Source: Promethearchaeati archaeon SRVP18_Atabeyarchaeia-1 (GTDB lineage Archaea > Asgardarchaeota > Atabeyarchaeia > Atabeyarchaeales > Atabeyarchaeaceae). Taken from it: 64,000 nt of DNA. The stretch spans positions 1,696,001-1,760,000 of the forward strand of contig CP147779.1 of assembly GCA_037308085.1 (NCBI GenBank), in the 5' to 3' direction. A program made the position numbers and the translations under genes. Of this stretch, positions 1,362 to 40,822 are shown piece by piece. Within the stretch, counting starts at the first letter, position 1. The number at the start of each line of letters is the position of its first letter. The notes under the pieces are model-generated. The model searched no databases, was not told the origin of the DNA, and worked only from the letters and a program-made list of their open reading frames with translations.

Positions 1362-1570
1362 AGCTGGCCCAGAAGTCAGGATCTCAAGATCGCGTTTCCA
1401 GTTATTCAGGACTATCGGGGGTGCCGTTGTGAGTGGTTCCCTTATTCTCCAGTCAGGTTGCTGAAAAATGGTACCCTTAAATACGGGAGAGTACCCTCAA
1501 TAATATGAGGGGGGAGGGGGTTCCCCCTTTAAAAGAGCCACCCGCCCCCATTTTCTATTTTGTGGAGCTC

Positions 1571-1600
1571 CGCTCAGTTAACTCTTCGGGTGATAGTTGG
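1571..1600 (+). repeat. Left terminal inverted repeat of tnpB element
   Basis: CGCTCAGTTAACTCTTCGGGTGATAGTTGG versus reverse complement of right end GGTTCTGTTAACTCTTCGGGTGATGAGTTAG. Confidence 0.85.
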
Positions 1601-1660
1601 TGCCGTTAGCTTCTCGGCCGTATGGCGGCTTTATTAGCCGAAGTAGCCCCTTTTTCGGGT

Positions 1661-2824
1661 ATGCAAGCTGTCAAAGCAGTCAAGCAGAGCTACACGCCAC
1701 CAACCGAACTACTCAACCTCCTAGACGAGTTTAGAAGAATGGTGAATGACTGCATACGGATTGGCTTAGCTGAAAATGCCACTTCGATGAAGGCGCTCTC
1801 AAAGAAGGCATACCATGAACTCGCAGGATGCGACGCGCCAACCTACTACCGCCTGACGGCGATCAGCAAAGCCACCGGAATCCTCCGGAACTACAGGCAC
1901 GCGCTGAGAAAACAGCCCAAGGCGAAGAGACCGCACGCGGCTAAGCTCATGCTCACCGACTGCTACGGCTTCAGGATAATCAGCGGCGAGCTCAGACTCC
2001 CCATAAGGGCAAAAGAGTACGTATACATCCCGCTGAACGCCTACACACTGCGGTCCATTGAGGGCTGGACCGTGCGTTCAGTCTGCCTGACCACCTCCGC
2101 CGTATCCCTGACTTTCTCCAGGGAGGTTGATCAGGTTGAGCCTGCGGGGCTAATCGGGATAGACCGCAACCTCGACAACGTAACCATTGCGTCCTCAGAT
2201 GGAGATGCGAAGAGGTATGACCTCTCGAGGGTAACTGAGATCAAGGAGAACTGCAGGCAGGCTAAGCGGGGCTTCAAGCGGAACGATTGCCGCGTCAGGG
2301 GGCAGCTCTACTCCAAGTATGGGCGAATCCAGAGGAGCAAGGTAAATTGGGTACTGCACAACGCTTCTGCTGATATAGTGAAGCGGGCGAAGGAGAAGCG
2401 GTTCGGCATAGTCATGGAGGACATTAGGGGCATCCGAAAACTCTACAGGAGGGGAAACTGGCAGGGCAGGGACTACAGAGCAAGGATGAACGGCTGGAGC
2501 TACGCCGAGCTGCAACGGCAAATAGAGTATAAGGCACGCTGGGAAGGTATCCCAGTGTTTTATGTTAACCCATCCAAGACTTCCTCACTCTGCGCGACAT
2601 GTGGTTCACCAATAACCGAATGCGCGGGGAGGAAGGTCTACTGTCCAAGATGCTGCAGCAGGCTCGTGGACAGGGATGAGAACGCGGCTTTGAACATCGT
2701 CGGCGCAGGGCTGCGGTTCGGCCTGAAGGGAGTGGCAGGTGAAGCGGTGAAGGGGAACCCTGAACGCGGAAAGGTAATCCCCGGAGCAGATGCCACCCAG
2801 CTAACTCATCACCCGAAGAGTTAA
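1661..2824 (+). CDS. tnpB: TnpB RNA-guided endonuclease, catalytic residues intact (ORF track start 1622; ATG 1661 preferred)
   Basis: RuvC-I GIDRN, RuvC-II VMEDI, zinc ribbon CATC...CPRC, RuvC-III DRDENAALNI; TATA-like TTTATTA about 30 nt before 1661. Confidence 0.93.
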   Translation: MQAVKAVKQSYTPPTELLNLLDEFRRMVNDCIRIGLAENATSMKALSKKAYHELAGCDAPTYYRLTAISKATGILRNYRHALRKQPKAKRPHAAKLMLTDCYGFRIISGELRLPIRAKEYVYIPLNAYTLRSIEGWTVRSVCLTTSAVSLTFSREVDQVEPAGLIGIDRNLDNVTIASSDGDAKRYDLSRVTEIKENCRQAKRGFKRNDCRVRGQLYSKYGRIQRSKVNWVLHNASADIVKRAKEKRFGIVMEDIRGIRKLYRRGNWQGRDYRARMNGWSYAELQRQIEYKARWEGIPVFYVNPSKTSSLCATCGSPITECAGRKVYCPRCCSRLVDRDENAALNIVGAGLRFGLKGVAGEAVKGNPERGKVIPGADATQLTHHPKS

Positions 2825-2851
2825 CAGAACCTGGAGCTCTCTTTCTGGTGC
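2700..2851 (+). ncRNA. Putative omegaRNA (reRNA) overlapping the tnpB 3' end, with the guide extending into the flank
   Basis: Position typical of TnpB omegaRNAs; pairings GTGGCA(2732)/TGCCAC(2791), GGGGA(2752)/TCCCC(2778), terminal TAACTC/GAGTTA hairpin; boundaries approximate. Confidence 0.5.
2801..2831 (-). repeat. Right terminal inverted repeat of tnpB element
   Basis: Contains ATCACCCGAAGAGTTAAC (2808-2825) and ends ...CAGAACC. Confidence 0.85.
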
Positions 2852-2963
2852 AACCGCTGTTTTGCTGCGGTCGGTATTCTGGCAAGAGAAGAGAGCGCGG
2901 TATCATTATTCAGCTCATCTGATTTTGGTGGGAGCCCTAATCTGCCAGCTTTTGGGAGGATCA

Positions 2964-3197
2964 TCAACGTCGGCTGTAGCTTGTGGCTAATGTAACGAAA
3001 ACCAGCATTAGGGAGGCTATGGCGAGCACTGCCAGTCCCGAGACCCCGACCTGCAGTGCGAAGAGCGTCACAAACATCAAAGCTCCGAGAGATCCGAGCA
3101 GGGTAACTAGGGTCACCGCTACTAGCCTTCTCATATACTGTCTTATCGCCAGCCTGTAGTTGTATGATACGTTCGCGTCAGCCAAGTTTAGCGCCAC
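2964..3197 (-). CDS. Small membrane protein (2 TM), possibly a fragment
   Basis: 77-aa ORF with two hydrophobic helices and GAGG upstream. Confidence 0.45.
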   Translation of the reverse strand: MALNLADANVSYNYRLAIRQYMRRLVAVTLVTLLGSLGALMFVTLFALQVGVSGLAVLAIASLMLVFVTLATSYSRR

Positions 3198-3300: not shown

Positions 3301-5565
3301 ATGTCAACAAAAAAGCCAAGGACTTTTGCAGGAATCATTGGTCAACTCAAGAAGTCGCGTGCCCGCGACGTTGTCAATGTCTACGTCGAGAAAGAACAGC
3401 TGCCCTCGTATGGATGTTCGGTCGGAGCCCTCGGGCTCTCCGAGTCCGTGATTGGCGCCTTAGAGCGGAGTGGGGTTTCGCGGTTCTTTGCCTTCCAAGA
3501 GAAAGCAATAGGGAGGATCAGGCAAGGCGACAACGTCCTTGTAGTCGCTGGAACCAGTATGGGAAAGACCGAGAGCTACCTCACGCCCGCCCTTGAATAT
3601 GCCACAAGGAATCTCTCAAGATGCATAGCCCTCATAATTTACCCGACCAAGGCACTGGCAGCCGATCAGGCTGAGAGGATATCCAAGTTGACCCAAGTCA
3701 TCTTCGGGGTTTCCTTCGCCAAGTATGATGGAGACACAACTGAGAGTGAACGGAGAAGGATAATGGCTAATCCCCCATCCATACTGATATCTAACCCTGA
3801 TATGCTTCACTTCCACCTACAAGACCCGTGGCTTCAGGAACTCCTCTCGTACCTCAAGTACGTTATCGTAGATGAAGTTCACAATTACTCAGGCGTATTC
3901 GGCAGCCACGTTCACCACATAATCCAGAGGCTGAAAAGGTTCGTGAGAGAGGATTGCCAGTTTGTAGCTTCCTCGGCAACCATCGGAAACCCAAAAGAAT
4001 TCGCCGAACTACTTTTCGCAGAGGAGTTTTCCCTAGTGACGTCGGATAAGGACTGGAGGGGGAAGCGCTCACATGTCATGATTGCTCCCCTACGCAGCAA
4101 ATACACGGAGGCAGTATACCTCGCTGAAATGCTTGTCCAAAGCGGACTCAAGACTATTATTTTCGCTGACAGCCACTTGAGCTCCGAACTCGTGAAGAGC
4201 ATCGCCGATGAGAGAAATCTGAACATGGGAATCCACCGGTCAGGTCTACTCAAAGAGCACCGGAGATCAGTCGAAAGCGCATTCAAGGAAGGTCAAATCA
4301 AGACGGTAGTAGCGACTCCTACACTTGAGCAAGGAATAGACATCGGCGATCTTGACGCTGTAGTACTGATAAAGATCCCACCGACTTTTAGCCGATACAT
4401 CCAAAAGGTTGGGCGCGCCGGAAGGAAGGGCAGGGAGTCAGGAGTATTCCTAGTAATCGGTGACGACCCAATCTCCAACTACTATGCTACCCACCCTGAC
4501 GAGTTCTATCATTCTACGCCAGAGCCAGCATACATCGACCCAGAGAACCCCGAAGTCCTGAAAAGGCAGATCGTGAGCATGGCGTATGACCAGCCCCTAG
4601 CAGACCGGGAAATAGATGAGATTGCCGAGAAGATCAAATCGGTCGGCACAGTAGTTGCCGGCCTACTGGAGGAAGGCTACCTACAGAGAATGAAAAACAT
4701 ACTAACACCTACGAGAAAAGGAGTGGCGCTTCACCAGTCTACGAAACTGAGGGGAACAGGAGAAGCCACAAGAATCTACACAATGGACAACAAATACATC
4801 GGTGACCGCTCTTTGCCAATGGCCGCCAGGGAGCTACACCCAGAGGCAATCTATCTGCATGGAGGAACCCAATACAGAGTCATGAGCTTTGAAGGTCGCA
4901 GAGCAATAGTGGACAGGATGCCATTCAGGAGCAGACAATTCACAGTAGCGCGCTACTATTCAGACATCAAGGAATATGAGACGAAGATGGAAAGGAGAGC
5001 CTTCAACGTACAGATAGAATATGGCGCCGGGACGATCTCGCACGTAGTAGACGGCTACTATGAGAAAGATAGACTGACAGAGAAAACCCTCGCCGAAAAC
5101 AATCTAGAAGAACCAATCATTTACGATTTCCCAACCAAGATCATCAACTTCAAATTGCCTCTCAAAATTACTTGGTCTCCCGAACAGAAGGGAAGCGCAT
5201 CACATGCTGCAGAACACATTCTGATATCTGCCGCTGTAACGTTGACAGGCGCGGACCAGGCCGAGATGGGTGGAATATCATACCCCGACGGCTCAATCGC
5301 AATCTACGACGGCGCATACGGAGGCTCAGGCTTAACTCGTCTCCTGTTTGATCGAATGGAAAGAGCGTTTGAAAGAGGAGCTGAAATGCTCGCGACATGC
5401 AAATGTGGACGGGAAGACGGGTGCCCCAAGTGCACATACTCCCCCTACTGTGGCAACAACAATAAGCATCTCTCGAAGAATGGCGCATTGACAGCTCTGA
5501 GAAAAGTACTGGGAGGCAAAGGAACGGAAGTGGAGAAAAAACCAACTGGAAAGTCAATAGTATAA
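3301..5565 (+). CDS. SF2 DEAH helicase with C-terminal Zn-binding DUF1998 (Hrq1/MrfA/SftH type)
   Basis: Walker A GTSMGKT, YPTKALAADQ, DEVH, SAT, QKVGRAGR, HAAEH and CKC...GCPKC. Confidence 0.92.
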   Translation: MSTKKPRTFAGIIGQLKKSRARDVVNVYVEKEQLPSYGCSVGALGLSESVIGALERSGVSRFFAFQEKAIGRIRQGDNVLVVAGTSMGKTESYLTPALEYATRNLSRCIALIIYPTKALAADQAERISKLTQVIFGVSFAKYDGDTTESERRRIMANPPSILISNPDMLHFHLQDPWLQELLSYLKYVIVDEVHNYSGVFGSHVHHIIQRLKRFVREDCQFVASSATIGNPKEFAELLFAEEFSLVTSDKDWRGKRSHVMIAPLRSKYTEAVYLAEMLVQSGLKTIIFADSHLSSELVKSIADERNLNMGIHRSGLLKEHRRSVESAFKEGQIKTVVATPTLEQGIDIGDLDAVVLIKIPPTFSRYIQKVGRAGRKGRESGVFLVIGDDPISNYYATHPDEFYHSTPEPAYIDPENPEVLKRQIVSMAYDQPLADREIDEIAEKIKSVGTVVAGLLEEGYLQRMKNILTPTRKGVALHQSTKLRGTGEATRIYTMDNKYIGDRSLPMAARELHPEAIYLHGGTQYRVMSFEGRRAIVDRMPFRSRQFTVARYYSDIKEYETKMERRAFNVQIEYGAGTISHVVDGYYEKDRLTEKTLAENNLEEPIIYDFPTKIINFKLPLKITWSPEQKGSASHAAEHILISAAVTLTGADQAEMGGISYPDGSIAIYDGAYGGSGLTRLLFDRMERAFERGAEMLATCKCGREDGCPKCTYSPYCGNNNKHLSKNGALTALRKVLGGKGTEVEKKPTGKSIV

Positions 5566-39364: not shown

Positions 39365-40822
39365 GTTCCGAACTGTTCGGATGGATTGTATAAATACGTA
39401 TAGTGACATATGAGCGGGCATGGAACAACTACTTCCTCCTGGGGAAGCATCCAGACTGCTCAAGGCCTGCCTCAACAAGACTAGTACAGACACAGCAAGA
39501 GTCACGGTGGCGACCCATCGAGAGAGACACCGGTGGATGGCGATGGAAGGCGAGAAGAGACCCCTCACAGTAAGGTACCAAGCCTCGGAGAGCGTCCTAA
39601 CATACCTCAGAGATATGAGAGACGCCTTAAAGGAGGCCCTCGCCCACGGATACGCCTTGGCGGAGACAAACCCAAACAAGGAAGTACCGAACCCAATAAT
39701 GCTGAGGAGGAAAGTGAAGCCCTGGTTCGACGCCCGTTACAGCTATGCGAAGCACCATGTCAACCCCCTCTGCAGGTCCGCCGTGGCTTTGCTCAGGTCG
39801 TACAGGAAACGCAACAAGAAGCTGGGCTTACCACGGATCAGCAGGCTCGCCATGAGGATCGACTCCGAGCTATTCCGCTTCAAGAAGAACGACGGTGGAG
39901 CAGCCAGCATCAGAGTAACCCTGCAGCCACTCCACTACGAGTACATCACCTTCACCCCAAGCCACAAGAAGTGGAGCATGTACAGCAGCGCGGGTAAGAT
40001 ATCCGAGATCCTACTGACCGACAGAAAGCTGTGCATCACCTTCGTTGTGGGGGCTGATAGTAGGAAGCCTCTCGGCAAGAGGCTGGTGGGCTCGGACCTC
40101 AATTTCCACAGTATGGACTCCACGGCGTTCGGCGGCGACGGGTTGGAGCCACCCCACACCGAGCCCCTTGGCAGGATAGTTCAAGTTCAGAACGACTTCT
40201 CGAGGAGGCGGAGGAGACTCCAGCTGCACGTCAAGAACCCAAAGAAGAGAGCAAGGAAGCTAACCGAGACACGCGGCAGGCAGAAGAACAGGGTCACGGA
40301 CGAGCTACACAAGCTTTCAACAAGAATCGTCCGGGAGAACCCTGGCACATCCTTCATCTTCGAGGACTTGGAGGGCATAAGAGGAAAGGCAGGGAAAAGA
40401 AAGACGACGAGCAGGAAGCTGAGGACCTATTTGAATCGCTGGCCCTACTGAGCGTTCCAGGGGATGGTGGAGTATAAGAGCCGATGTAGAACGCTTTACG
40501 TTGACCCAAGGGGGACCTCATCGAAGTGTCCCGTCTGCGGTGGAGTCTTGGAGCACCCAGCTTGGGCAGTAAGCAGGTGCAGGAAATGTGGCGTAGACTA
40601 CGACCGGGACAGGCTCGCAAGCTTGGCGATACTCCAGCGTGGCCTGCGCCTATGCGGCCAACCGTTTACGGTGAGTGCGGGCGCCTCTTGGCAGCCTTTG
40701 AGGAGTGAATACCTGTACACTCCCGGAGAGCCGAAGGCTGGGAGAGCAGGCGGGACCGAACGGGTTGCCAACGCACCGAATAGAAATGCGGACTTCTATG
40801 AATCTCCACATTTCCAGAAACG
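39365..40822 (+). mobile_element. IS607-like tnpB element with deleted tnpA, inserted in cutA
   Basis: Removing it rejoins cutA in frame (KIH|PYEVP); GGT at both junctions (39364-66, 40822-24); left hairpin TCCGAAC-T-GTTCGGA. Confidence 0.8.

Follow-up and report, generated by a model that had tools for sequence, protein, structure and literature searches.

A tnpB cassette with IS6-type ends in an Asgard archaeal chromosome is probably mobilised in trans

What moves a tnpB gene that lies between inverted repeats and has no transposase beside it? The question is raised by a mobile unit of 1261 bp in a 64,000-nucleotide stretch of DNA, here called the window, which corresponds to positions 1696001-1760000 of the complete 2.81-Mb chromosome of an Asgard archaeon (CP147779.1; 49.6% GC). 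The unit occupies window positions 1571-2831 and carries tnpB alone inside terminal inverted repeats (TIRs) of about 28 nt. An earlier note on this DNA had stated that no transposase gene lies within the element, and tnpB is indeed the only long open reading frame (ORF) inside it. We put a probability of about 0.82 on the reading that the unit is a non-autonomous cassette of tnpB and its omegaRNA, held between IS6-type TIRs and moved by an IS6-like transposase encoded elsewhere.

Inverted ends and 8-bp duplications

The same 8 bp, TGGAGCTC, stand at 1563-1570 and 2832-2839, both copies abutting the element tips directly, as the earlier note had described. An 8-mer direct repeat by itself is not significant in 1.6 kb, where the repeat search returned 20 such families. 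This repeat is meaningful because it is placed at the TIR tips and because other copies of the element show the same layout with other 8-mers. The inverted arms (1574-1594 and 2808-2828) are 21 nt long and 95% complementary, and similarity continues to the tips at 1571 and 2831. The loop at one end is the reverse complement of the loop at the other, and the ends are therefore true inverted repeats. The right end reads GGTTCTGTTAAC, which agrees with the IS6-type start GG(Y)TCTGTT; the family consensus is GGTTCTG. The left end of the window copy, CGCTCAGTTAAC, is degenerate, with CGCTCAG against GGTTCTG at the right. Thus, of the inverted repeats of about 30 bp with an 18-bp perfect core that had been claimed, the arms and the core (GTTAACTCTTCGGGTGAT) stand, whereas the left terminus has decayed. 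The features of the locus, in window positions, are as follows.

1547-1559, plus strand: T-rich flank cccattttctatt, 5' of TTG; many other copies have a TATA-box-like TTTAAA or TATAAA here, and T and A prevail at -19 to -14 across 26 left flanks
1560-1562, plus strand: TTG adjoining the left duplication on its 5' side, part of the family target motif (flank statistics) and a candidate target-adjacent motif (TAM)
1563-1570, no strand: left 8-bp target-site duplication TGGAGCTC (repeat search and direct reading)
1571-1598, plus strand: left TIR CGCTCAGTTAACTCTTCGGGTGATAGTT, its first 7 nt degenerate relative to GGTTCTG (direct reading and repeat search)
1622-2824, plus strand: tnpB ORF, 400 aa by the longest frame (ORF and profile matches)
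1630-1636, plus strand: TATA-like box TTTATTA, about 24 nt before the ATG at 1661 (direct reading)
2703-2831, plus strand: omegaRNA-like scaffold of about 129 nt, overlapping the 3' end of tnpB and finishing at the element tip (covariation)
2804-2831, plus strand: right TIR (reverse complement GGTTCTGTTAACTCTTCGGGTGATGAGT), which is also the 3' hairpin of the scaffold (direct reading; covariation of helix 6)
2832-2839, no strand: right 8-bp duplication TGGAGCTC, which would double as the first 8 nt of the predicted guide (from TnpB biology)
2832-2851, plus strand: predicted guide of about 16-20 nt, made of the duplication and the adjacent flank (by analogy with characterised TnpB omegaRNAs)

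We searched the genome for relatives by BLAST of the unit against the chromosome, by a pattern search for the ends and by a whole-genome search with the transposase profile PF13610 (DDE_Tnp_IS240). BLAST found three further copies of the window kind (type 1), at about 85% identity. One is flanked by ATAGCATT/ATAGCATT and one by CCGAACCA/CCGTACCA, and an internally deleted copy has unmatched flanks. A second tnpB family (type 2) comprises 11 copies of about 1.29 kb, with the TIR GGTTCTGTTACCTCTKCGGTTGA and a TnpB that is 36% identical to that of the window. Seven miniature inverted-repeat transposable elements (MITEs) of about 260 bp, with the TIR GGTTCTGTCAAGTCTTCGGTTGA, keep the scaffold without tnpB (for example, genome 537694-537951; L064-L070). 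Each combines a left end that has a TATA-like box of its own (GATTTATAT) with a complete omegaRNA-like scaffold, which makes them candidate guide-RNA-only elements that would need both a transposase and TnpB in trans. The pattern search also returned several truncated left ends. Type 2 cassettes and MITEs have related GGTTCTG ends and 8-bp duplications.

The earlier note had proposed that other copies would carry different 8-bp duplications, and ATAGCATT and CCGAACCA/CCGTACCA are examples. The opposite outcome, copies generally without flanking duplications, was not seen: of 25 paired TIR-bounded elements in the genome, 9 have flanking 8-mers that agree at 8/8 and 8 have a 7/8 match (17/25 together). 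Unmatched flanks or deletions were found in T1_d, M673, M2198, T2_813k and T2_2135k, and intramolecular replicative events or recombination between copies would fit those with unmatched flanks. The 8 bp arise at insertion, because other copies bear different matched 8-mers. A pre-existing repeat or a serine-recombinase origin of the 8 bp is ruled out on the same grounds, as the 8-mers differ between copies and match within a copy. The layout recurs in relatives from Asgard archaea, Bathyarchaeia, Nitrososphaeria and Thermoproteota. In metagenomes, the loose ends of contigs diverge exactly at 1570 and 2831, and further insertion contexts were found.

Transposases between the same ends

The PF13610 search returned two transposase genes in the same genome, each within a TIR-bounded cargo transposon that has its own 8-bp duplication. 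A DDE transposase gene carrying the same TIRs, which the earlier note had predicted, was thereby found twice over, both genes being of IS6 type. Element A (genome 549276-555829; L003 2277-8830) is 6.55 kb long. Its ends, GGTTCTGTTAAC.. and GGTTCTGTTAAG..GGGTGAT, are of the window cassette type, and it is flanked by TGGAGAAC matching at 8/8. Its transposase is intact (383 aa), with a SWIM zinc finger, a zinc ribbon and a DDE domain, and its cargo comprises a 995-aa Eco57I/MmeI-type (type IIG) restriction-methylase and two ORFs of unknown function. A further left-end-like sequence, preceded by TTG and 8 nt, lies 78 bp inside the right tip of element A (genome 555751) and suggests a nested or composite end.

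Element B (genome 614149-618567; 4.4 kb) has the type 2 right end, GGTTCTGTTACCTCTGCGGTTGAT, at both of its ends and a duplication that matches at 7/8 (TGAAAAAA/TGAAAAAC). The alignment of its transposase with that of element A covers only residues 127-376 of the latter; the zinc-finger region is thus missing. The TIRs of the transposase elements match the cognate cassette type (24/24 for type 2). The best NCBIfam model for the transposases is the IS6 family transposase (NF033587), at 116-121 bits against a cut-off of 125, and D210, D269 and E308 are invariant across eleven homologues. In the sister genome G002, a 6.2-kb element (L049 6171-12329) encodes the same kind of transposase and has a perfect TGGATTTC duplication. 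The cargo of that element includes a 446-aa ParB-N-like protein and a NOV_C-domain ORF, and a third TIR-like sequence directly follows its transposase gene (L049 10492).

A metagenome search with the transposase yielded more than 575 relatives, and we inspected the loci of the best 80. About 50 autonomous elements among them were retained at a flanking 8-mer match of at least 7/8; nearly all of the listed pairs match at 8/8, and the TIR-bounded elements span 2.2-9.2 kb. Within 10 kb of the transposase, tnpB or the RNA scaffold was found in none of these best 80 loci (0/80). We read the link between transposase and cassette as one in trans because no transposase locus among the 80 has tnpB within this distance. 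Taken with the matching ends, these data suggest that an IS6-like transposase most likely mobilises the cassette in trans. In this scheme, a transposase encoded elsewhere in the chromosome and built of a SWIM zinc finger, a zinc ribbon and a DDE_Tnp_IS240 domain would bind the cassette ends, and an 8-bp staggered cut at insertion would produce the TGGAGCTC duplication. The likely partner is the 383-aa transposase of element A, whose TIRs are near-identical to those of the cassette.

tnpB and the scaffold at the right end

The tnpB product matches PF07282 at 4e-18 and NCBIfam NF040570 at 108.9 bits (cut-off 100). Its RuvC D/E/D triad (GIDRN, VMEDI and DRDENAALNI) and a CxxC...CxxC zinc finger are intact; the best match covers only the C-terminal part of the protein, and the triad was read in the translation and in a second alignment. 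Homology of relatives to the long ORF starts at residue 10-16, and the true start is likely to be the ATG at 1661. The TTTATTA box upstream of it may be the element's own promoter. The stop codon, TAA at 2822-2824, falls within the right TIR. The gene is under purifying selection, with a ratio of non-synonymous to synonymous substitution rates (dN/dS) of 0.13-0.29 among the copies. The nearest named relative of the window TnpB is on CP147780.1, from 'Candidatus Atabeyarchaeum deiterrae' Atabeyarchaeia-2. A second tnpB in the window (40446-40631, plus strand) matches the TNB domain; its frame is broken by one TGA, and it has no inverted ends of the GGTTCTG type, being among the genome's roughly 30 tnpB genes of this sort.

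The last part of the element is conserved as an RNA structure. We aligned the last 135 nt of 18 elements from 5 archaeal lineages (alignment A1), comprising type 1 copies, MITEs and relatives from Atabeyarchaeia-2, the Asgard metagenome-assembled genome LC30, Bathyarchaeia, Nitrososphaera and Thermoproteota. In the consensus fold, compensatory changes occur in 16 of the 28 pairs. Paired cells make up 94.6%, against 82% in shuffled alignments and 23-43% when the pairing partners were slid, and none of the 500 shuffles attained any of the five observed measures. G-U pairs assign the RNA to the tnpB strand. The final helix (helix 6) is the right-TIR hairpin, in which one pair is CG in 9 sequences and GC in 9.

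A profile built from A1 matched 25 places in the chromosome, each of which is the right end of a cassette or MITE, and every cassette and MITE was found; neither autonomous element was matched. Most matches run as far as the final profile position, at the element tip. A search of window positions 1400-3000 against Rfam matched no family. The last ~130 nt of the element are an omegaRNA-like scaffold whose structure, and whose boundary at the element tip, are supported by covariation and by the profile matches that finish at the termini. The right TIR had been thought to double as the omegaRNA 3' end, and it proves to be the 3' hairpin of a covarying scaffold that finishes exactly at the tip. 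In the LC30 copy (L017 2370-3677), the inverted repeat is about 52 nt long, the final portion of the scaffold is repeated in inverted form in the left end, and the profile matches both strands.

In characterised TnpB omegaRNAs, the guide comes from DNA 3' of the right end (PMC13565253). The right TIR would have a dual role, as a transposase-binding end and as the last omegaRNA hairpin, and, by analogy, a transcript reading out of the element would carry the duplication and the flank as its guide.

A one-sided motif beside the insertion sites

To describe the insertion sites, we aligned the flanks of the genomic elements on their termini (26 left and 20 right). TTG stands at -11 to -9 of the left flank, the side of the tnpB 5' end, in 17/26 type 1, MITE and truncated copies, and in 23/26 when a shift of 1 nt either way is allowed; its background is 1.9% of the genome, the right flanks have it in 1/20, and p is ~2e-23. 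Of the type 2 cassettes, 6/11 read TTA at this place and 9/11 have A at -9. The layout of TTG, 8 nt and element end also occurs in relatives from other phyla and in a new insertion context at the loose end of a metagenome contig. In cassettes and MITEs, the motif is always on the tnpB 5' side.

Is this motif a TAM of TnpB or a preference of the transposase? We built a weight matrix from the cassette flanks and applied it to 47 autonomous metagenomic elements. In 21/47, against an expectation of about 2, a flank scores above the 98th percentile of the background, and none of these 21 has tnpB or omegaRNA. On the cassettes themselves, 20/25 left flanks pass, a circular result because they are the training set, and 0/20 right flanks do. 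Of the 21 autonomous elements, 12 have the motif at the end on the transposase 5' side, 8 at the opposite (3') end and 1 at both. Elements that agree in how their left and right TIR variants are arranged occur in both orientations relative to the motif (L117 versus L104, L126 and L139). In the autonomous elements the third base varies: TTG in 12, TTA in 3, TTC in 2, TTT in 2 and TAG in 1. Because the motif also flanks transposase-bearing elements that have neither tnpB nor omegaRNA, it reflects, in part at least, the target choice of the transposition machinery, and for autonomous elements it is neutral to orientation. That the motif is exclusively the TAM of TnpB is rejected by the same observation.

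Several metagenomic contigs carry two or three TIR elements in tandem with an identical intervening 8-mer. L155 (693-10731) has GGGGCTGA three times, L088 (4078-12071) has CTGAATTG, and L098, L102, L116, L128 and L141 are of the same kind. These arrays look like repeated insertion at the same regenerated site, fixed by the flanking motif. For about 11/20 elements in the archaeal genome, a host ORF in the same direction begins 17-106 nt beyond the right end, so that many insertions lie between a TATA-like box and a gene start.

These results count against a TAM role for TTG and give substance to a competing account, in which the motif is only a target preference of the transposase or a promoter, the fixed orientation of cassettes results from selection on expression (through a captured promoter or host-gene read-through), and the real TAM is a different one. 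The flanks of autonomous elements without tnpB, the tandem arrays that re-use the same 8 bp, so that position is set by the site, and the nearby host ORFs all speak for it. By contrast, autonomous elements of one architecture occur in both orientations, so that the transposase imposes none; the third base is stricter and family-specific in cassettes compared with autonomous elements; and cassettes and MITEs have TATA-like boxes of their own near the left end. We regard this account as a serious contender, falling a little short of even odds.

The simplest account of the cassettes is nonetheless that TTG (type 1) or TTA (type 2) serves as the TAM, because the cassettes are locked in orientation and have a stricter, lineage-specific third base. 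Insertion sites across the transposon family bear a one-sided motif made of a TATA-like box, 2-4 nt and TTK, which adjoins the 8 bp, with the last base of TTK specific to the family in cassettes. In an unoccupied allele, TTG, the 8 bp and the right flank would then present a TAM and a full guide match, and the left junction of an occupied allele would match only 8 nt. TnpB could then cut empty alleles, and we infer that this could drive copying of the cassette. A broader picture can be drawn tentatively, and we give it somewhat less than an even chance. A widespread group of archaeal IS6-like cargo transposons would insert about 5 nt downstream of TATA-box-like elements in either orientation, and cassettes and MITEs would parasitise their transposase strictly in trans, persisting only where TTG or TTA is the TAM of the empty allele. 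The result would be an RNA-guided homing drive on a replicative DDE transposon that never needs restorative homing.

Points against an active IS6-type cassette

Several observations weigh against the reading of the window unit as an IS6-type cassette moved in trans. The element A transposase, at 120.7 bits, is just below the IS6 equivalog cut-off of 125, and the left tip of the window copy, CGCTCAG, lacks the GG typical of IS6 ends. With this degenerate tip and with copies about 15% diverged, the window copy may no longer be mobile. The joint 1570-2832 of an empty site (CTATTTTG-TGGAGCTC-TCTTTCTG) was found in none of the metagenome contigs of four runs, although contigs drop rare variants and absence is not implied. 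No orthologous empty site was readable in the same-genus and same-family genomes G001 and G002, where the flanking genes are only 70-80% identical and the content of the interval differs.

It is therefore worth asking whether the whole cassette family is a fossil, in which tnpB serves the host or has simply not decayed so far, the ends are dead and the transposase elements just happen to use similar ends. The divergence of the type 1 copies would agree with this, as would their left termini (4/4 in the genome have no GG), the deleted or unmatched elements T1_d, M673, M2198, T2_813k and T2_2135k, and the element B transposase without its N-terminal zinc-finger region. However, tnpB is under purifying selection, many duplications still match at 7/8 or 8/8, and metagenome contigs show further insertion contexts that break exactly at the termini. 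The transposase of element A is full length with an invariant DDE triad, and the TIRs match the cognate cassette type. We therefore consider a fossil family unlikely. An ordinary IS1341-type element of the IS200/IS605 or IS607 kind, moved by a Y1 or serine TnpA and having subterminal hairpins, with the repeat a coincidence or a recombinase core, is very improbable. In its favour, IS200/IS605 is the usual classification of tnpB-only elements, a hairpin does occur in the right end, and some 30 further tnpB genes of the genome are without such ends. However, the inverted repeats are true ones, and Y1 or serine mobilisation is rejected by 8-mers that vary between copies and match within them and by DDE transposases between the same ends.

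Relation to known elements

The cassettes share with IS6/IS26 elements the 8-bp duplication and a DDE_Tnp_IS240-type transposase. The window-family ends start with GGTTCTGTT, as do IS257 ends, and the IS26 end, GGCACTGTT, matches the left end of L014. Unlike in IS6/IS26, the transposase here has extra SWIM and zinc-ribbon domains at its N terminus, and the autonomous elements are cargo transposons of 2.2-9.2 kb rather than 0.8-kb insertion sequences. The one-sided TATA-like/TTK motif at the insertion sites is a further difference; IS26 is not known for such a motif.

In overall form, the window unit resembles IS1341-type IS200/IS605 elements, with a length of about 1.3 kb, tnpB as the only gene, an omegaRNA overlapping the 3' end and a guide from the flank, which here is predicted. 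IS200/IS605 elements, by contrast, have no TIRs and no duplication, their ends are asymmetric with subterminal hairpins, and a tetra- or pentanucleotide abuts the left end; here, inverted repeats are present and the motif is set off from the end by the 8 duplicated bp. Nor does the unit resemble IS607, which has a serine recombinase, no TIR or duplication, and insertion at or after GG; the duplications here vary between copies. The usual explanation of TnpB is that it restores IS200/IS605/IS607 elements that have excised without leaving a scar. Relatives in the IS6 family move by copy-in, without excision, and an active TnpB would therefore have to benefit the element by converting empty alleles, as a drive, rather than by repairing the donor.

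Inverted ends around tnpB have been described before. The accessible part of Altae-Tran et al. 2023 (PMC10691335) reports six DDE-associated TnpB branches (DDE-1 to DDE-6) bounded by inverted terminal repeats, together with solo TnpBs that share these ends. As here, TnpB lies between symmetric inverted repeats with its 3' end close to the transposon end, and solo TnpBs share their ends with transposase-bearing relatives. In the present case, transposase and tnpB were never found in one element (0/80 transposase loci). IS630 is the only DDE partner named in the same part of the paper, and a 2026 review (PMC13565253) names ISL2, IS630 and IS1031 and does not name IS6. Our literature search on IS6, TnpB and archaea found nothing relevant, and the available text of the genome paper (PMC11529989) makes no mention of TnpB, TIRs or IS6. 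TnpB within DDE-type ends is thus already in print, and what appears to be new is an IS6-like partner that would act in trans only. The site motif, the orientation lock and the omegaRNA MITEs may be new as well. Fanzor offers a parallel as an RNA-guided nuclease that rides on DNA transposons with TIRs and target-site duplications; its short fixed duplication (TA or TTAA) is part of the TAM (PMC13565253), whereas here the variable 8 bp would begin the guide match and the candidate TAM lies outside them.

Gene-neighbourhood surveys of links between TnpB and transposases can miss associations that exist only in trans. The present genome offers a test bed: autonomous and non-autonomous partners are matched in one complete chromosome, the two lineages of TnpB differ in their candidate TAMs, the MITEs carry the omegaRNA scaffold alone, and the variable duplication of 8 bp would begin the guide match.

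Downstream of the element, at a distance of about 470 nt, starts the gene for a 754-aa DEAD/DEAH helicase with a C-terminal MrfA-type zinc-binding domain (window 3301-5565, plus strand).

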